Below, one piece after another: positions 15,310 to 52,829 of a DNA stretch of 64,000 nucleotides. This stretch comes from a virus. Location of the stretch: IMG/VR virus record IMGVR_UViG_3300036981_000286, positions 1 through 64,000 of that record; one strand, written 5' to 3'. The notes beneath the pieces are model-generated. The model was not told the origin of the DNA and searched no databases. It saw nothing but the letters and a program-made list of their open reading frames with translations. The first letter of the stretch is position 1, and every line of letters begins with the position of its first letter. A program made the translations under genes and the position numbers.

Positions 15310-15726
15310 GTGGGCGCCAACCAAAAACGGTTTGTAGTTAACGCTGAGCAACGCGTATACGTTGAAAAGAAGTGGGGCTACGAGGATTGGATTTGGAACG
15401 GGCGCTATTGCGGCAAAAAGCTGTTTATTGAAAAAAGCAAAGAGTGCAGCTTTCACTACCACAAAGTTAAAGACGAGGTGATGTATCTAGAGCGCGGCAA
15501 AGTGCTTCTAACCTACGGATGGGACGAAGACGTAAACGCCGCCGCACAGTTGATACTGATGCCTGATATGGCCTTCCATATTCCGCCGGGAATGTGGCAC
15601 AAGTTTCATGGGCTTGAAGAATCGATGATGTTTGAGTTCAGCACGCACCACAGCGACAAGGACGTCGTTCGTGCTGGCCAGCCAGACAAGGATGTACCAA
15701 ATGCCGCAGAAGAAATTAGCGACTGA
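15310..15726 (+). CDS. Cupin (sugar-isomerase-type) protein
   Basis: KKWGYEDWI, SFHYHKVKDE, HIPPGMWHKF. Confidence 0.8.
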   Translation: MGANQKRFVVNAEQRVYVEKKWGYEDWIWNGRYCGKKLFIEKSKECSFHYHKVKDEVMYLERGKVLLTYGWDEDVNAAAQLILMPDMAFHIPPGMWHKFHGLEESMMFEFSTHHSDKDVVRAGQPDKDVPNAAEEISD

Positions 15727-18550
15727 GATTCTGCACCGCGAATACGCAAAAGCTTTAGTTAATTTGGCGCTGGCCCGCGCGGATAAACTAGACACTGTAA
15801 AACAAGCTGCTAATGCCTGGGGCGCGCTTGGAACTCTTGCGGGAAACGCAGTTACAGCTTTCAGAGGCGCAGCAAAGCCTGCGGCTAAAGCTGTAACTCC
15901 AGTTGTTGATGCAGCTGCAACAGCCGCAAAGCCAGCAGCAAAGGCCGTAGCCCCAGTTGTTGACGCCGCCGCAACAACGGCTAAACCATCTTTTAATTTA
16001 CCGGGCGCGCCTCTGAGTTCGCCTAAGCAGCTCGCGGCGCTCCGTGCGGCGCAGGCGCAGGCGAGGGCAACCGGCGACTCAACACCGGTTAATAAGATGC
16101 TGTACAACTCCACAAACGCGCAGGCACCGGCGCCAAAGATAGCGCCAACTCCTGCACCGGCGCCAAAGCCCGGACCAGCTCCAGCCCCCGCGCCGACACC
16201 AGCTCCAGCCCCCAAACCAGCGCCTGCGCCAGCCCCTGCGCCCGCTCCGGCCGCGGGCGGCGTGCCAGCGCCTTCGGCGCCTGTGCCTGCCCCTGCCCCT
16301 GCCGCTGCGGGCGGAAATCCGGCTAAAGCTATTTTTGATCGATGGAAGCGTTTAACCGGACTGGGTGGCCGTTACGCATATCCGGTTGCCGTAGGTAATG
16401 GTGCATTGTATCAAGGCGCACAACGAGTTGAAGAAAATACAGGCATACCTTTAACGACAAATCCAATTATTAGCGGCTTAGCGTTTCCGTTTTCGACTGC
16501 GGGAGTCGCTCTCGGCAATCTAGCGGTTGGCACTGCTGACCGTGTGGTTCCGCCCCCGTCGGCGTCTGCACCTCCCCCCGCATCTCCGATTGCGGACAAA
16601 GAGCGGCTGCCTTATGCCGCTGGTGGCGCAGGCGGCGTAGCTGCAACAGGTGCCGGTACCGTGGCTCCAGTTGCGGATAAGCCGACAAGCCAATTTGAAA
16701 CGTTCTTAGCCAATAATAACATTAGTTCGATGGATGATGTTGCAAAACTTAGCCCTGAGCTGCAAGCGCAGTTTAATACGCTAGCAGTTGACGCTGTTGG
16801 CGCTAATCCGAAACCGGAAGCGCCTCCGCCTGCGCCTCCCGCCGCGGCTCCGATTGCGGACAAAGAGCGGTTGCCTTATGCCGCGGGCGGTGCGGGCGGT
16901 GTAGCTGCTACAGGTGCTGGCACCGCGGCGCCAGTTGCTGATAAACCGCAACTTACGCCAGAGCAGCAAACTGCCGCGGCTACTGACCTGCAGGCAAAGC
17001 TTAAAACTACAACGGACCCGAAAGCGCGCGAGACGCTTATTACTGATTACGCTAGCACGTTAAACCTTGACGCGCCGACGCAAACAGCAGCAGCCGCGTT
17101 TGCAAGAGGCGAAAAGACGCCAGAGGCGCAAGCGTTTGAAAAAGAATACATGCAGCCTGCGCTCGGTAATTTTGTTAACGACGCCACAGGCGGGTCCGGC
17201 GCCAACAGTCCCCGCGAGTTTGGGCAAATTACTCAGATGTGGGAAGGTTTAGGCACTGCTGGGCAGATGGCTTTTGCCATTGGCGTACCGTTAGCGCTTC
17301 TCGGTGTGTTAGGCGGCAGCGGAGCCGGTATGTTACTGGGCGCCCTCGGTATTGGCGCGGCTGGCTTGGCCGCTGCTTCAAGCGGCTTGTTCGGCGAGAC
17401 TGCGCAAAATACTGTTGCTGGCGCAACTGACGCCGCCGCATCTGCAGCCGGTATTTCAACAAAAGCACCAGAACAGGTTCCGTTTGAATACACACCGGAA
17501 AACGCCAGTCAGATTTTAAATCAATTGTCTGGTACTGATACCGGTATGTTTGCCAATCTGGGCGCAGGCTCACAAAACTCGTTGCGGTCATTTGCTACGG
17601 CAAATAAACCCGCTTTGGAAAACATGCTTGCACGACCCGCGGAAGAGCTCGCCGGACTCGTCACAAATTTAGCGCCCGAAGCGCAAACAAACTTAGCTGA
17701 AAGATTGCAACTTATGCGCAGTAGACTACCAGATAATCCAAAAACGCCAGACGTAAACGAAACGCAACAAGGGCAGCAGAAAATTGACGCGGTGCTCGCC
17801 GCAATAAAGACAAGCATGTTTAACGAAAAATTAGCTGCTATTTTGGTTATGCGCAAAGCCGCCCGTTGCTGGGCCGGTTACGAACCAGTGCCGGGCAAGA
17901 AGCCCTACAGCAACGACTCATGCCGCCCGATTGGCGGTAAGAAAAAGAATAAAAAGACTGAGAAAAAAGCAGTACAGGCCGCGTGCCCTGGTGGTGTGTG
18001 CCCGCGGCCGCGAGCTGCCCCGCAACAACCAGCGCAGCCGCAGTATAGTACAATCCCGTTTGACCGCGCTTATGCGGAAGCGGCGTTTAAACATCACGGA
18101 ATACCCTATAACGCAGAAGCTACAGATCAGCAGCTGTACAACAAATTCACCCACCTAGGCAAAATACCGCCCAATAAACCCCCGAACAAATTTCAAGAAA
18201 TGGTTGGCGTGCATCACGGCCGCCTCCCTCCGCCGCCACTGCAGCCGACCGTTGCGCGTCCTAGGGTGATTCCGTCCACCGATATCGCTCCGCCAGCTGT
18301 AACGCCAGCGCCAGCGCCGTCTCCGTTTAAGGCAGCGCCCCGCCCTCAAAGCCCGCCAACGAGCGCTGCCCCGGCCGCGCCTGCCGAAAAGCCCATTCAT
18401 ATGCGGAACCCTGCCACGCTAGACGCGGCCGGCATGGATGCTTGGTGGGCCCACCAGTTCAAACAGCAGGCGATGGCTAACGCAGCTCGTCGGCCGCCGC
18501 CGGTAACCGCTGCGCCCGCAAAACCAGCGACGCCACCGAAAGTGCGGTAA
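15701..18550 (+). CDS. Large Pro/Ala-rich modular putative virion protein
   Basis: Likely start 15701 (track 15632); KQAANAWG junction, PA repeats, duplicated 33-aa block, Gly-zipper, RCWAGYEPVPGKKPYS..SC motif. Confidence 0.75.
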   Translation: MPQKKLATEILHREYAKALVNLALARADKLDTVKQAANAWGALGTLAGNAVTAFRGAAKPAAKAVTPVVDAAATAAKPAAKAVAPVVDAAATTAKPSFNLPGAPLSSPKQLAALRAAQAQARATGDSTPVNKMLYNSTNAQAPAPKIAPTPAPAPKPGPAPAPAPTPAPAPKPAPAPAPAPAPAAGGVPAPSAPVPAPAPAAAGGNPAKAIFDRWKRLTGLGGRYAYPVAVGNGALYQGAQRVEENTGIPLTTNPIISGLAFPFSTAGVALGNLAVGTADRVVPPPSASAPPPASPIADKERLPYAAGGAGGVAATGAGTVAPVADKPTSQFETFLANNNISSMDDVAKLSPELQAQFNTLAVDAVGANPKPEAPPPAPPAAAPIADKERLPYAAGGAGGVAATGAGTAAPVADKPQLTPEQQTAAATDLQAKLKTTTDPKARETLITDYASTLNLDAPTQTAAAAFARGEKTPEAQAFEKEYMQPALGNFVNDATGGSGANSPREFGQITQMWEGLGTAGQMAFAIGVPLALLGVLGGSGAGMLLGALGIGAAGLAAASSGLFGETAQNTVAGATDAAASAAGISTKAPEQVPFEYTPENASQILNQLSGTDTGMFANLGAGSQNSLRSFATANKPALENMLARPAEELAGLVTNLAPEAQTNLAERLQLMRSRLPDNPKTPDVNETQQGQQKIDAVLAAIKTSMFNEKLAAILVMRKAARCWAGYEPVPGKKPYSNDSCRPIGGKKKNKKTEKKAVQAACPGGVCPRPRAAPQQPAQPQYSTIPFDRAYAEAAFKHHGIPYNAEATDQQLYNKFTHLGKIPPNKPPNKFQEMVGVHHGRLPPPPLQPTVARPRVIPSTDIAPPAVTPAPAPSPFKAAPRPQSPPTSAAPAAPAEKPIHMRNPATLDAAGMDAWWAHQFKQQAMANAARRPPPVTAAPAKPATPPKVR
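16586..16948 (+). repeat. Internal duplication (PIADKERLPYAAGGAGGVAATGAGTxAPVADKP x2)
   Basis: Copies near 16586-16684 and 16850-16948. Confidence 0.85.
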
Positions 18551-19884: not shown

Positions 19885-20125
19885 ATTTCAGGAGAGCAGC
19901 AAGGATGGCGCGTAGTGCGACACATCTCCCTCACATCGGTGGCGCGCGCGAGTGATTCTTGTTGGTTCCGGCTGTACACATACAGCTGGAATTGCACGGC
20001 GTCGGATAAGCCGCCGTGCCGGACGTTGGTTGCTGGGTTCTAACGGTGTCCGACCGCCCCTTTCGCCCCTACGCAACACGAGCACAAGCAGGACGCGAGC
20101 GGTCCTGCTGCCAACGGTCCAGCCT
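19885..20125 (+). ncRNA. Candidate structured RNA upstream of tRNA-Ser
   Basis: Hairpins at 19966-19991, 19994-20019, 20088-20108; long-range pairing 20021-20029 with 20111-20120. Confidence 0.4.
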
Positions 20126-20134
20126 GTTTAAATT

Positions 20135-20221
20135 GGATGGGTGGCAGAGTGGTTTAATGCACCGGTCTTGAAAACCGATGAACTTTAACTTGTTCCGGGG
20201 GTTCGAATCCCTCCCCATCCG
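20135..20221 (+). tRNA. trnS: tRNA-Ser(TGA)
   Basis: Acceptor ggatggg/cccatcc, anticodon loop cttgaaa, long variable arm, T-loop gttcgaatc; CCA not encoded. Confidence 0.95.
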
Positions 20222-20282
20222 CATAGGTTGCGTTATTTTCTGTGTGCTTGTAAATTGACTGTACCTTTAAAGGAGCTTTTTT

Positions 20283-23634: not shown

Positions 23635-24261
23635 ATGGAAAAGCGCTGGCATTATGTTTACGTTATTTTGTATCCCGCGTTGGACTACAAATTTTATTAC
23701 GGGTCACGCATAACCGACGTGAGCCCAGCGGCGGACGTTGAGTATTTTGGCTCATTAGTCACGTTCGCGCACTACAACGACGTAAAGGACGCTGAATATC
23801 AGGCAGACGCCTTAAAAGTCGTGCTGCACGCGGAGTACAGGGCTGTTTCCCGCACTAGTTTGCGGCGGCTTGCGGTGCGGGAAAATACGCTAATTAAAGA
23901 AGCATTGGAAGCCAGCCACGTCGGGCCTGCAGTCTGTATAAATCGCAATATTGGCGGTCGCATATACGCGACAACGGACGAGCGACGGCAGTGGGGCGCG
24001 CTTGGCGGTAAAAAGGCGGCAGCCTCGTGCTTAGGCGCTCACGCGCTTGTTTATGACCACAGAGGGCAACCGCAAAAACTTGGCGCAGCCATGGCGCAAG
24101 CGCAACAATCCAAAACTTTTAAATTTTTGGATCCAACTGGTAATACGCAGACCGTGCACAATTTAAGAGAATTTTGCCGCGAAAATAACTTAGACCAAGC
24201 CCACATGTGCTGCGTGCATCGCGGCTCGCGAAAAAGCCACAAAGGATGGTCTAAACCATGA
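23635..24261 (+). CDS. Homing-endonuclease-like protein (GIY-YIG variant + NUMOD-type DNA-binding tail)
   Basis: YVY...FYYGSR...YFGS N-terminus; FLDPTG...NLREFCRENNL...KSHKGW C-terminus. Confidence 0.65.
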   Translation: MEKRWHYVYVILYPALDYKFYYGSRITDVSPAADVEYFGSLVTFAHYNDVKDAEYQADALKVVLHAEYRAVSRTSLRRLAVRENTLIKEALEASHVGPAVCINRNIGGRIYATTDERRQWGALGGKKAAASCLGAHALVYDHRGQPQKLGAAMAQAQQSKTFKFLDPTGNTQTVHNLREFCRENNLDQAHMCCVHRGSRKSHKGWSKP

Positions 24262-24567: not shown

Positions 24568-25572
24568 ATGGCAAAAGGTTTAGACGTTGGTACATCGTTC
24601 ATTGTCCTCGCGAAAGACGGCGCAGAGGGCAACGTGGACTACAAAGACTTTCGCGACGCGTTTTACGCAATTAAGCCGACCACGCCAGTCGCTACCAAAA
24701 TGATTGAAAAGGGGCTTGCCGGCAAAGTATTCGTAAAAGACGAGGACGGTACCTTTATTCTGCTCGGGCAGGACGCAATCGAGAAAGCCGTTGAGCGCAA
24801 TGACTCGGCTAAGCGCCCGATGTACCGCGGCGTTGTTAGCCCTAAAGAAAAAGACGCAAAACGCGTATTAGCTTTTATTCTGCAAGAAGTCGTGGGCAAA
24901 GCCGACGAGGCGGACGAAAAGATCGTGTTCTGTATTCCGGCGCAACCCGTGGATCAAGAAGACACAGATTTTGACGTTGGGTACCACGAAGACGTCGTTA
25001 AGCTTATTTTGTCTGGGGCCGGCTATCTTGCGCGGGCTATTAACGAAGCTGAGGCGCTGTGCTACTCAGAATTTGAAAACGACGATTACACCGGTATTGG
25101 CTTATCCTTCGGCGCCGGTATGGTAAATGTATGCGTAATGCTTAGCGGCGAGCCTACTGTGATGTTTTCGACAACCAAATCCGGCGACTGGGTTGATCGA
25201 ATGTCGGCCGTGGCTGTTAACGAGCCTGATAGCGTTGTGCAGGCGGAAAAAGAGCACGGCGTGTTTCAAGTAGGCGAGCCAAACGAAAATCACATTTTGG
25301 CTGCTGTGTCGGCGTATTACGACCGACTGATTGACTACACCACAAAGCAACTTGCCGCGGCGCTAACCGGGCACAAGTCACTACCAAAGTTTAAAGATCC
25401 GCTACCTATTGCCGTAGCGGGCGGAACATCAAAAGCTGCAGGTTTTGTTAAATTATTTGCCGAAAAACTGGCTGCAAATGGGTTCCCGCTGGCCGTTAAA
25501 GAAGTTAGGCATGCAGCGGATCCGCTTCACGCAGTTGCCAGAGGCTGTTTGATTGCCGCGAAAATTTTGTAA
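24568..25572 (+). CDS. Actin-like ATPase (MreB/MamK/ParM superfamily)
   Basis: GLDVGTS (phosphate 1), INEAEA (connect 1), SFGAGMVN (phosphate 2), VAGGTS (adenosine), DPLHAVARG (connect 2). Confidence 0.85.
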   Translation: MAKGLDVGTSFIVLAKDGAEGNVDYKDFRDAFYAIKPTTPVATKMIEKGLAGKVFVKDEDGTFILLGQDAIEKAVERNDSAKRPMYRGVVSPKEKDAKRVLAFILQEVVGKADEADEKIVFCIPAQPVDQEDTDFDVGYHEDVVKLILSGAGYLARAINEAEALCYSEFENDDYTGIGLSFGAGMVNVCVMLSGEPTVMFSTTKSGDWVDRMSAVAVNEPDSVVQAEKEHGVFQVGEPNENHILAAVSAYYDRLIDYTTKQLAAALTGHKSLPKFKDPLPIAVAGGTSKAAGFVKLFAEKLAANGFPLAVKEVRHAADPLHAVARGCLIAAKIL

Positions 25573-25591
25573 ATTTCTGTTAAACTTAACG

Positions 25592-25811
25592 TGTTGTAAG
25601 TTAGTCGTGGTGGCCGACTGGTTAGGGAAGCAGCTCGTACAACAGGGATGTTTTACGGGCTGACAGGAATCCGTGGTCAGGCTTTGGCCGCGCTCACGGT
25701 TGGTGGAGCAATGAATGCCGCACGAGGTTGAGTTTACGCCTTAGAAAGTCATTGCATGCCTCGTTTCGACGAGGTCCGGGCCTGTGGAGGGGATCACAGG
25801 AGCTTACAACA
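25592..25811 (+). ncRNA. Candidate ~220-nt structured, GGA-rich small RNA
   Basis: 11-bp closing stem 25592-25602/25801-25811 enclosing several hairpins, including aac-agggat-gtt and cctcgt-ttcg-acgagg. Confidence 0.55.
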
Positions 25812-25851
25812 AATACACACACAAATTTTACATAACTTACTAGGTAGCAAC

Positions 25852-26202
25852 GTGTTAGACGAATATTTTCATTCGTTAGCTGTGTTTGCCAGCGCATTCG
25901 GGGTCGCGGCCTTTGCCGGGCTAGCGACATTTTTGCGTTTCGCCCGAAAACTCTCTAAACTGGCGTTAATAAGCGCGATGTTAAACGCCGGGTTTCTCGG
26001 CCTAGCCGTCGCACTTTTGTGGTATCAAAACTACCGAAACGCCGAAAATGTAAGTGGCTTAATTGGGATATGCGTATTAGCGGGTATGGGCGGATCAACT
26101 GTTACTGACATTTTAATTTCTATCCTGTCTGGCGCTGGAATTAAAGTAATTATTCACCACGAGCGAGATCGCGATGACACACTCCGTAACGATGACGCTT
26201 GA
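25852..26202 (+). CDS. Holin-like three-TM membrane protein
   Basis: Three TM helices, GMGG motif, charged C-terminus; GTG 25852 preferred because the track's extension overlaps the RNA candidate. Confidence 0.55.
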   Translation: MLDEYFHSLAVFASAFGVAAFAGLATFLRFARKLSKLALISAMLNAGFLGLAVALLWYQNYRNAENVSGLIGICVLAGMGGSTVTDILISILSGAGIKVIIHHERDRDDTLRNDDA

Positions 26203-26356
26203 TCAGCGCTGCCGGCTTAGCCTTGTAGCGTGGTTTTTAGCCGCTGTTTGTGCGCTTGGTTTGTTGTTTGCCGCCAGCGCCGCCGTTAGTAGCCAATCCC
26301 AAGACATCCAAACACACGATTTTAATTACAGCAGCCATAACAATACAGCTGCGTAA
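26192..26356 (+). CDS. Small membrane protein
   Basis: Single TM helix; overlaps the upstream stop. Confidence 0.45.
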   Translation: MTLDQRCRLSLVAWFLAAVCALGLLFAASAAVSSQSQDIQTHDFNYSSHNNTAA

Positions 26357-26359
26357 TTT

Positions 26360-26431
26360 TGCCCGATGGCGCAACGGTAGCGCGGAGCACTGTTAATGCT
26401 TAGGTTCTAGGTTCGAATCCTAGTCGGGCAG
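26360..26431 (+). tRNA. trnN: tRNA-Asn(GTT)
   Basis: Acceptor tgcccga/tcgggca, anticodon stem gagca/tgctt with loop ctgttaa, T-arm ctagg-ttcgaat-cctag. Confidence 0.95.
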
Positions 26432-26436
26432 CTGGA

Positions 26437-51539: not shown

Positions 51540-52829
51540 ATGGCACGGATGCAACGTTCGCTCTTCGCGCAACTAAACGCGCTGGCTGAAGAAATTTCTC
51601 AGAACGCGGAAAAGGTCGCGGCTGCTAAGCAAGCCTCGCCGGTTCCCGCTGACCCGGGTGGGTATCAGGGCGCATCGACGCACCCCAGCGCGCACGTTGA
51701 TAACGATGTGCAGAAGGCGACGACGGGCGCTCGTGCATCTGAGTACGAGGCGGACGTTAAGAAGCAGCAGGGCGCGCTCGCTGTAGATAACACACCTGAG
51801 ATGTCGCAGGAAGGTCGTCAGGATGATGTTCAATTAAACATCAACACCAACGCCGCTGCGACAGGCGAAGATCCGGCCGCTGAAAAAGATTACAAGGGTA
51901 CGAAAGACGACCCGGGTACATCGCATCCCGCCAAGACCAACGACGGCGAGAAGTACAGCCACGTATCGTTTAAAGAAGCTCACACCAAGTGCAGCAATCT
52001 TGGTAACGAGATTCTGGCTGACCTCGTCAACTTCGGAACAGCTACTTTTAAAAAGGCTGAAAAAGACGTTGCCGAAGCGGTGACAGGAAAAAAAGACAAT
52101 AGCGGCAATTTAAAGGGCAACCAAAACAAGCTCGACGTCGATAAGGACGGCAAGCTCGAGGGTTCCGACTTTGCCGCGCTGCGTAATAACGACAAGGCTG
52201 CCGCTTTTTCGGCCGGCTACGAGTTAGCCGCTGCGCTTGGTATGGATAAGGCTGCGGCCGAGGCCAGTGTCCGCGACGTATGCGCGAACACGCTGCGCGA
52301 AGCTGACGAAATGGCTGATCTGTTCGTTGGGTTCTACACAGCGAAGCAGGCTGACGACGCCGCCGCTGAAGAAGGCGAAGATCACGCCGAAGAAGGCGAA
52401 TCCGAGGGCGGCGAAGAAGCGCCAGCTGTTAGCGTTGAAGAAATGATGGGCGGCGGGGCCCCGGCCGGTGAGCCCGGACTTGAGCAGGCTCCTCCGTCGG
52501 AAGACGAGGCGCTGCAAGAGCTGGCGATGGCGTTACAAGAACTAGGCATTCCGCCGGAAGCGCTGCTGCAGGGTCTTGCGGGCGAGGCCGGCGGCGAGGG
52601 AGCGATGGCTCCTGAAATGGCCCCCGAGATGGCTCCTGAGATGGCTCCTGAGATGGCTCCTGAAATGGCCCCGAAGATGGCGGCCGCTCGAGAGCTGCAA
52701 ATGATCGGTAACGCTGTTATTAACTTTCAGAGTTCCGGTAATTTTCAAGTCAAAGAGGCTCGCACCAAGCGGTCGCGCCATCTGCGAGATATCATGAAAG
52801 ATCATGTGCGCGAACTCGTTGGTCGCTGA
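51540..52829 (+). CDS. Scaffold-like acidic head protein
   Basis: Between protease and capsid; acidic/helical; KQAS, KAAA, KQAD, KMAA; GNQNKLDVDKDGKLEGSDF EF-hand-like motif. Confidence 0.6.
   Translation: MARMQRSLFAQLNALAEEISQNAEKVAAAKQASPVPADPGGYQGASTHPSAHVDNDVQKATTGARASEYEADVKKQQGALAVDNTPEMSQEGRQDDVQLNINTNAAATGEDPAAEKDYKGTKDDPGTSHPAKTNDGEKYSHVSFKEAHTKCSNLGNEILADLVNFGTATFKKAEKDVAEAVTGKKDNSGNLKGNQNKLDVDKDGKLEGSDFAALRNNDKAAAFSAGYELAAALGMDKAAAEASVRDVCANTLREADEMADLFVGFYTAKQADDAAAEEGEDHAEEGESEGGEEAPAVSVEEMMGGGAPAGEPGLEQAPPSEDEALQELAMALQELGIPPEALLQGLAGEAGGEGAMAPEMAPEMAPEMAPEMAPEMAPKMAAARELQMIGNAVINFQSSGNFQVKEARTKRSRHLRDIMKDHVRELVGR
52605..52676 (+). repeat. 12-bp tandem repeat x6 (MAPE x5 + MAPK)
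   Basis: atggcYccNRaR units in frame. Confidence 0.9.

Follow-up and report, generated by a model that had tools for sequence, protein, structure and literature searches.

The DNA analysed here, which we call the window, spans 64,000 nt from the start of an IMG/VR virus record that is 79.6 kb long and, by CheckV, 39% complete. All of its long open reading frames (ORFs) are on the + strand. Complete relatives of this phage measure 198–205 kb. Among isolates, Vibrio phage D69 and Salmonella phage Arash come closest, at an RNA polymerase identity of only about 32%. The stretch under study is the gap between an actin-like gene and a gene for a 116-aa protein with three transmembrane (TM) segments. 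The features of the locus are as follows.

23635–24261: HNH endonuclease gene, near the RNA
24568–25572: Volactin-type actin-like gene (PF25216, E = 2e-63), upstream of the RNA
25578–25586 (+): extended −10-like element TGnTAAACT (TGTTAAACT in the window), 5 nt before the closing stem of the RNA
25592–25811 (+): structured non-coding RNA of about 220 nt, closed by an 11-bp stem
25852–26202 (+): gene for the 116-aa, three-TM, holin-like protein, GTG start, downstream of the RNA
26360–26432: tRNA-Asn, in the same orientation as the RNA, 150 nt after the membrane gene

What kind of protein is encoded downstream? As read from its translation, it combines three TM segments with a charged C-terminus. 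It matched no family in Pfam, PHROG or NCBIfam. Its closest ESM-Atlas clusters are Phage_holin_3 families (score 0.89–0.90), which we treat as a lead only. In the region 26174–26432, which also includes the tRNA-Asn, the 3′ end of the holin-like gene is overlapped by an ORF of 60 aa whose N-terminus is hydrophobic. No strong terminator was found ahead of either this ORF or the tRNA-Asn and, since both share the orientation of the RNA, they may belong to its transcript.

A conserved structured RNA in the gap

The original prediction placed in the gap a CsrB/RsmZ-like sponge RNA that titrates CsrA or, alternatively, a regulatory leader for the holin-like gene. Is there a structured RNA here at all? 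Among relatives, the non-coding stretch over window positions ~25592–25814 is 69–99% identical. Homologues were collected from 63 IMG/VR loci by way of the downstream protein and from 18 by way of the actin-like protein. A covariance model was built, 41 matches (38 of them distinct) were aligned to it, and the structure was refined by hand to 64 pairs. In the 38 distinct homologues 97.6% of cells at these 64 pairs are paired, and compensatory double changes occur at 45 of the 64. When the partners are slid by 1–3 columns as a control, 34–45% of cells pair; none of 500 shuffles reached the observed pairing measures. An independent prediction by RNAalifold from 37 sequences has 58 pairs, and 42 of these show compensatory changes. 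Many of the G–U pairs are invariant, which fixes the strand as +. The single-sequence fold of the window RNA is unexceptional (z = −0.99), and so is its number of GGA motifs; it is thus the comparison with relatives that carries the case.

Could the region be coding instead? If the membrane protein began at the ATG at 25756, inside the RNA, as the original prediction had allowed, the ORF in the window phage would run to 148 aa. Against this, that ATG occurs only in the window phage and in the relative whose RNA is 98.9% identical to it, while in 33 of the 34 other relatives an in-frame stop comes ahead of any equivalent ATG. Moreover, the protein homology begins at the 25852 start codon, and substitutions track base-pair covariation, not codon structure. 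We give the coding explanation almost no weight.

How far does the family extend? The RNA is present in one copy per genome and was found only in one clade of ~200-kb uncultured IMG/VR phages. All true covariance-model matches are full length and score at least 183 bits, bar one clipped by a contig end. Two pattern scans of IMG/VR, together with the covariance model, returned only full-length matches of the same clade and no distant members. The sole match in genome_contigs, in an Actinomycetes MAG, is a chance one (partial, inside a coding gene, E = 0.003). When the whole window was compared with Rfam 15 at gathering thresholds only tRNAs were found. At E ≤ 10 nothing matched at the RNA locus (25450–25950 searched), nor did six divergent homologues match at E ≤ 1. 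Likewise blastn against 50,697 phage records gave only a tRNA-sized match. Resemblances to the RNase P P4 helix, the SRP Alu loop, the T-box and the cobalamin box were dropped, as was that of hairpin P8 (see below) to the 16S 3′ end, for want of a model match. We conclude that, judged by its covariation, the RNA is a real, undescribed structured family absent from Rfam. Its interest lies in the combination: a large, well-supported structured RNA family that has no Rfam entry, is tied to a lysis-type gene and presents an invariant candidate CsrA site of the top-affinity form.

Architecture of the RNA

The elements of the fold, in window coordinates, are listed here.

25592–25602 / 25801–25811 (+): P1, 11-bp closing stem; 99% of cells paired, double changes at 9 of 11 pairs
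25603–25619 (+): P2 hairpin; 100% paired, 4 of 5 pairs covary
25608–25614 (+): P2 loop UGGUGGC, which forms the pseudoknot
25610–25614 / 25717–25721 (+): pseudoknot, 5 bp; 100% paired in 38 sequences, 2 pairs covary
25620–25626 (+): J2/3, single-stranded GGUUAGG; near-invariant
25631–25662 (+): P3 arm, a variable stem with an invariant tip; all 5 modelled lower-stem pairs covary
25643–25650 (+): P3 tip CAGGGAUG, an ANGGAX hexaloop closed by C–G; candidate high-affinity CsrA site
25671–25699 (+): P4 hairpin with internal loops CCGUGGUCAG ... CACGG; 9 pairs, 96.8% paired, 3 covary
25700–25707 (+): J4/5, single-stranded GG(A/U)GG(A/N); always G-rich, Shine-Dalgarno (SD)-like
25708–25714 / 25749–25755 (+): P5 (GCAAUGA/UCAUUGC); 7 pairs, 100% paired, 6 covary
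within 25708–25755 (+): contents of P5, namely the pseudoknot acceptor AUGCCGCAC, hairpin P6 and a conserved nGnAAG junction
inside P5 (+): P6 hairpin; 6 pairs, 5 covary
25759–25774 (+): P7 hairpin, UUCG-type loop; double changes at 6 of 6 stem pairs
25781–25800 (+): P8 hairpin; 7 pairs, 4 covary
P8 loop (+): AGGGGA(U), invariant; second candidate CsrA/SD-like site

P1 closes a junction of six arms (a seven-way junction), and a pseudoknot joins the loop of P2 to the internal loop of P5. This pseudoknot, which covaries as U–A/U–G/C–G and as C–G/U–G/U–A, is the helix missing from the original description. The helices that had been named there are supported by covariation in all but one instance: the 11-bp closing stem, the AGGGAU-tipped arm (P3), CCUGUG/CACAGG (P8), GCAAUGA/UCAUUGC (P5) and the UUCG hairpin (P7) are all present. 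The exception is the ctgac-AGGAAT..gtcag hairpin, which falls outside the conserved fold and whose GGA occurs in only 16 of the 38 sequences.

Where does the sequence conservation lie? About 65 positions are invariant and these, mostly outside the GGA motifs, make up the pseudoknotted core. Its invariant unpaired blocks are GGUUAGG, GUCAG, AUGCCRCAC and GnAAG. J2/3, to which no other segment was found to pair, is invariant over its first six bases, GGUUAG, and at least 90% conserved at its final G (alignments A1 and A2). The bases of the P4 internal loop are invariant as well. Within P5, AUGCCRCAC lies 5′ of P6 and GnAAG lies 3′ of it, the junction reading AGAAAG in the window. The P8 loop A-G-G-G-G-A-U-C is invariant in 37–38 of 38 sequences, with a variable insert of 0–2 nt on its 5′ side, and the P3 arm differs by a few nucleotides in length between relatives. 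As read from the alignment, an invariant core of this kind outside the GGA motifs implies a precise three-dimensional fold.

Position of the RNA relative to its gene

How is the RNA transcribed, and to which gene does it belong? The −10-like element recurs among relatives: of 39 distinct upstream regions, 32 have a TAnRNT hexamer that ends 3–10 nt ahead of P1, and 27 of the 32 have the TGn extension. One remaining clade (L093, L103, L053, L056, L070 and L104) carries TGATAAAT/G about 26 nt upstream of P1, with an extra small hairpin between the two. A generic promoter scan left the −10-like element unflagged, since that scan requires a −35. We infer that the element is a promoter at which transcription of the leader starts, and that the RNA and the membrane gene lie on one transcript. 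In relatives a conserved −35-like motif, CTTTGACAA, precedes the −10-like element by ~50 nt, and an inverted repeat, likewise conserved, separates the two (e.g. L067:2673–2742, L093:318–387); in a standard sigma-70 promoter the distance would be shorter.

On the 3′ side, a homologue of the holin-like gene starts at most about 65 nt after the RNA in all of the ~54 loci checked (20–61 nt where the start is fixed), among them loci found by the RNA pattern alone. No terminator was found between the RNA and the gene (25811 to 25852). On the 5′ side, the actin-like gene is 0.1–3 kb away in relatives, the link from RNA to membrane gene being unchanged. Because the downstream gene is invariably linked, the upstream context varies and no terminator intervenes, the RNA is best described, on its position, as a cis-linked 5′ leader of the holin-like gene. 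Of the two functions originally proposed, the leader thus fits better than the sponge. Inserts of 0.6–3 kb stand between the actin-like gene and the RNA in many relatives, e.g. L104:7050–9067 and L103:3877–7031.

A different possibility is that this is some other trans-acting or catalytic RNA, such as a transcript-processing ribozyme or an RNP scaffold, co-transcribed with the membrane gene for convenience. The seven-way junction, the pseudoknot and the number of invariant positions are comparable to those of small ribozymes and RNP RNAs, and the co-oriented tRNA-Asn past the membrane gene may be counted in its favour. No ribozyme or RNP RNA of Rfam was matched, however, no Ro/TROVE partner is encoded, and the strict close linkage to one gene points to a function in cis. 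We consider such a role quite unlikely.

If the RNA is a leader, does it act by occluding the ribosome-binding site? The SD regions of the downstream gene read UAGGUAG, AGGUGG, AGGCGG and others, none of them containing GGA. AUGGA is present at the start codon in some relatives and is not conserved. Among 36 homologues we found neither a conserved SD-sequestering helix nor a consistent occlusion of the SD or AUG. With no GGA at the SD and no conserved helix to sequester it, the classical mechanism of CsrA repression is inapplicable. In the window the 5′ strand of P1 can pair with an AACUUAC repeat that lies downstream, close to the SD; judged by eye, relatives do not conserve this pairing, and it was set aside.

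GGA motifs and candidate CsrA sites

The region was said to contain about seven GGA trinucleotides, and seven are counted, at 25626, 25646, 25666, 25705, 25786, 25791 and 25799. Homologues contain 4–10, with a mean of 6.6. Is this number exceptional? Seven GGA places the RNA in the top 1.2% of the phage's 220-nt windows, at three times the phage background; dinucleotide shuffles of the RNA contain 5.1 ± 1.6, so that the observed seven is not above chance (P = 0.18). Conservation is more informative than number. Two GGA loops, those of P3 and P8, are invariant, one junction GGA is near-constant, and the remainder are clade-specific.

The tip of P3 reads C-A-N-G-G-A-U-G and is invariant in 38 of 38 sequences except at N (G in 31, U in 7), in agreement with the canonical candidate CsrA site that had been proposed. 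The highest-affinity site of CsrA/RsmE is an ANGGAX hexaloop set directly on a stem (Duss et al. 2014, PMC4005645). The P3 tip, (R)C-[A-N-G-G-A-U]-G(Y), matches this consensus, with the caveat that in the free RNA its A might pair with its U, which would shorten the loop to 4 nt. Since N is G or U, which breaks GNRA rules, a GNRA-type tertiary role is less likely, and the variation of the P3 arm in both length and sequence suits a putative docking site.

The other two sites are less clear-cut. The P8 loop has no equivalent of the A in ANGGA and is constant at N, which suggests constraints other than, or beyond, CsrA. In 37 of the 38 sequences J4/5 retains one GGA or more; where the first is lost (GGUGG), the second is present in 12 of 12. 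These 12 cases of a switch from GGAGGN to GGUGGA probably belong to one clade and represent a single evolutionary event. The leader of the gene at 25852 therefore contains two or more GGA sites, at the P3 tip, the P8 loop and J4/5, and binding of CsrA to it is plausible. The G-rich motifs are SD-like too, and sequence alone has no power to separate CsrA binding from pairing with the anti-SD of the 30S subunit.

Elsewhere in the window, the 8-mer CANGGATG occurs 11 times, for example at 51544–51551, 18433–18440 and 15687–15694, compared with 4.85 ± 1.97 in shuffled sequence (0 of 100 shuffles reach 11). Seven of the 11 copies are on the coding strand. Some lie in small palindromic hairpins, such as GCACGGAUGC, which directly follows an AAGGAG-AUG start in the vicinity of 51540, and, at 18432, GCAUGGAUGC. 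These copies could be further CsrA sites or could reflect a codon effect.

The phage CsrA protein

Does the phage encode the protein that would bind such sites? PF02599 scores above its cut-off in all nine RNA-bearing genomes that are at least 90% complete. csrA was found in the five complete relatives first examined (E = 1e-16 to 1e-20, over the Pfam cut-off), in four of four further genomes at least 90% complete, and in a 120-kb relative, 59% complete, which shares 98.9% identity with the window in this RNA. The gene is about 72–77 kb from the RNA, lying ~77 kb beyond it in the last of these relatives. The window's own 79.6-kb record has no csrA; by synteny with relatives, the csrA of the window phage would fall past the end of the fragment.

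The phage protein has matches in PHROG (‘CsrA-like regulator’) and in NCBIfam (CsrA). Its alignment with RsmA/RsmE structures extends over the full length, and the MLxLxR(K/R) motif of β1 and the equivalent of Arg44 are retained. No FliW-type antagonist is encoded. In complete relatives csrA (L087:1360–1650, −, and its equivalents in L088–L091) specifies 64–96 aa, with a C-terminal tail that is Lys-rich and then variable. The gene sits tightly within an operon: a conserved gene of 223 aa ends ~10 nt ahead of its start, and it overlaps a small MGWND... ORF. No intergenic RNA adjoins it. Nor was a sponge-like, GGA-rich RNA found beside csrA in the clade; the gaps there hold 0–7 GGA and no ANGGA, and appear to be coding on the opposite strand.

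About 1.2% of sequenced phages carry csrA (PMC7366521), and knock-down of one phage csrA gives smaller plaques, the gene being semi-essential for plaque size (PMC11879866). Neither report mentions any RNA that a phage CsrA partners or targets. Is the RNA found wherever phages carry csrA? The covariance model matched nothing in the csrA flanks of 66 other csrA-bearing phage contigs. Since all carriers of the RNA belong to one clade, the co-occurrence of csrA and RNA is phylogenetically uninformative.

These results bear on the proposal that the RNA is a trans-acting sponge of the CsrB/RsmZ type that would titrate CsrA, either in its leader form or once released from the mRNA by processing. Its GGA content and density, the perfect match of one candidate site to the high-affinity form, a phage that encodes CsrA and no FliW, and csrA surroundings devoid of any other sponge-like RNA are all in keeping with it. 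The Salmonella fim 5′ UTR offers a precedent for an mRNA leader that titrates CsrA. On the other side, the GGA count is within that of dinucleotide shuffles, just 2–3 sites are conserved, no terminator or independent 3′ end is evident, no Csr/Rsm model of Rfam is matched, and an elaborate invariant core is unneeded in a sponge. The ‘ANGGAN-gated’ genes that such a sponge was to de-repress do not stand out either, for the ribosome-binding sites of the phage are of AAGGAG type, indistinguishable from a normal SD. A leader that controls its own gene is more likely than a CsrB-like sponge, to which we assign a small probability.

A second conserved element

A second conserved non-coding element, of ~100–120 nt, lies at window ~20004–20125 (+), just upstream of a tRNA-Ser (20135–20222). 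It is 75–86% identical across the clade and has no match in Rfam. From 14 sequences RNAalifold predicts 29 pairs, 12 of them compensatory, including a long-range stem. The element is C-rich, and in most relatives it has an unpaired conserved tract, CCUCCUUCGCCCC (CCCCUUUCGCCCC in the window), that resembles an anti-SD. Pairing between the leader RNA and this element was considered and dropped, crude RNAduplex energies being no better than those of shuffles. The highest GGA count of the phage, nine, is in the 220-nt segment from 19816, which overlaps the upstream flank of the element.

How might the leader act?

The explanation that we favour, at slightly less than an even chance, is that the RNA is a new protein-responsive leader, probably bound by CsrA, which would control the lysis-type (holin-like) gene in this clade of ~200-kb phages. 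Transcription from the extended −10 element would place the RNA and the membrane gene on one mRNA. A CsrA dimer, that of the phage or possibly that of the host, would dock on the ANGGAU hexaloop at the tip of P3, and the same dimer would contact a second G-rich site, either the AGGGGAU loop of P8 or the GGA of J4/5. Binding would alter the fold of the leader, or its accessibility to ribosomes or RNases, and the change would set the timing and amount of the lysis-type protein. The invariant core might present the CsrA sites or sense something further. Some observations count against a part for CsrA. The csrA gene is 72–77 kb away from the RNA, and csrA-bearing phages of other families lack the RNA. 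In addition, the bulk of the sequence conservation, as seen in the alignment, is outside the GGA motifs.

Could the leader work without CsrA? The core might be the aptamer or tertiary fold of a ligand-sensing riboswitch, or of some other CsrA-independent leader, acting in cis on the holin-like gene, with the GGGA(U) loops serving as tertiary-contact or ribosome-contact elements. Size, junction architecture, pseudoknot and invariant unpaired blocks are typical of aptamers. Also consistent with this explanation are the conserved, covarying structure upstream of the gene (by RNAalifold and by the 64-pair count), the strict position directly 5′ of a single gene family, and an SD that is weak or missing in many relatives, suggesting a need for activation. 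An expression platform, however, is not apparent, there being neither a terminator nor a conserved SD-sequestering helix, and no known class is matched in Rfam. Furthermore, G or U at N of the P3 tip breaks GNRA rules and fits those of CsrA, and a P3 arm of varying length is easier to reconcile with a tip on which a protein docks than with a tertiary contact of fixed geometry. We regard this explanation, the main rival of the CsrA-bound leader, as unlikely, though it carries appreciable weight.

What would follow from the favoured explanation, a CsrA-bound leader? If CsrA does bind, a concrete target is in hand for the CsrA of a phage, jumbo phages may time their lysis by a mechanism not seen before, and structural work gains a new complex RNA fold. 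A more ambitious form of it, which we advance with considerable doubt, is a self-contained viral Csr module. In it the pseudoknotted leader would be the platform on which the phage CsrA docks and the decision is taken, and CsrA, possibly with a second signal that the invariant core senses, would time holin-like expression and hence lysis. If such a module exists, no RNA before this one has been dedicated to a phage CsrA, and the leader would represent a new class of riboregulators that respond to a protein or to both a protein and a ligand. If CsrA is uninvolved, the RNA is still a candidate for a new riboswitch-like or ribozyme-like class.

Comparison with known systems

Which of the known systems does the leader resemble? 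In the moaA leader of E. coli, CsrA binds two sites inside the Moco aptamer and remodels it (PMC7652899). Like moaA, the phage gene has a long, conserved and structured 5′ leader whose GGA sites lie within the fold and not over the SD, and the action proposed for it is remodelling, not occlusion of the SD. The phage fold is nevertheless unrelated to that of moaA: it has no Rfam match, it contains a pseudoknot and a six-arm junction, and both it and the CsrA that is its presumed partner are encoded by the phage, the binding being predicted from sequence.

CsrA also represses cel, the lysis gene of ColE7 (PMC2896534). The parallel is a GGA hairpin loop 5′ of a lysis-type gene that belongs to a mobile element and that CsrA, in the phage, would control. 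One site overlaps the SD in cel, as it does in glgC and hcnA, whereas the phage leader has no GGA at its SD and is far larger and more conserved.

The sponge RNAs with which we compared the leader were CsrB/CsrC and RsmX/Y/Z (RF00018, RF00084, RF00166, RF00195, RF02144). Both they and the phage RNA display GGA in hairpin loops and in single-stranded junctions, and one phage loop is identical in form to the ANGGAX hexaloop of hcnA and RsmZ that RsmE binds. Sponges have 7–22 GGA sites, in contrast to the 2–3 that are conserved in the phage RNA. The latter, moreover, has no match to their models, no terminator and no sRNA gene of its own, and possesses an invariant tertiary core.

Finally, the S holin gene of phage lambda is preceded by sdi, a single small stem-loop that governs its dual start at the level of translation. 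In both cases an RNA structure immediately 5′ of a holin gene, class-I-like in the present one, tunes or would tune the timing of lysis. The phage element described here differs from sdi in its length of ~220 nt, in its pseudoknot and in being probably responsive to a protein.
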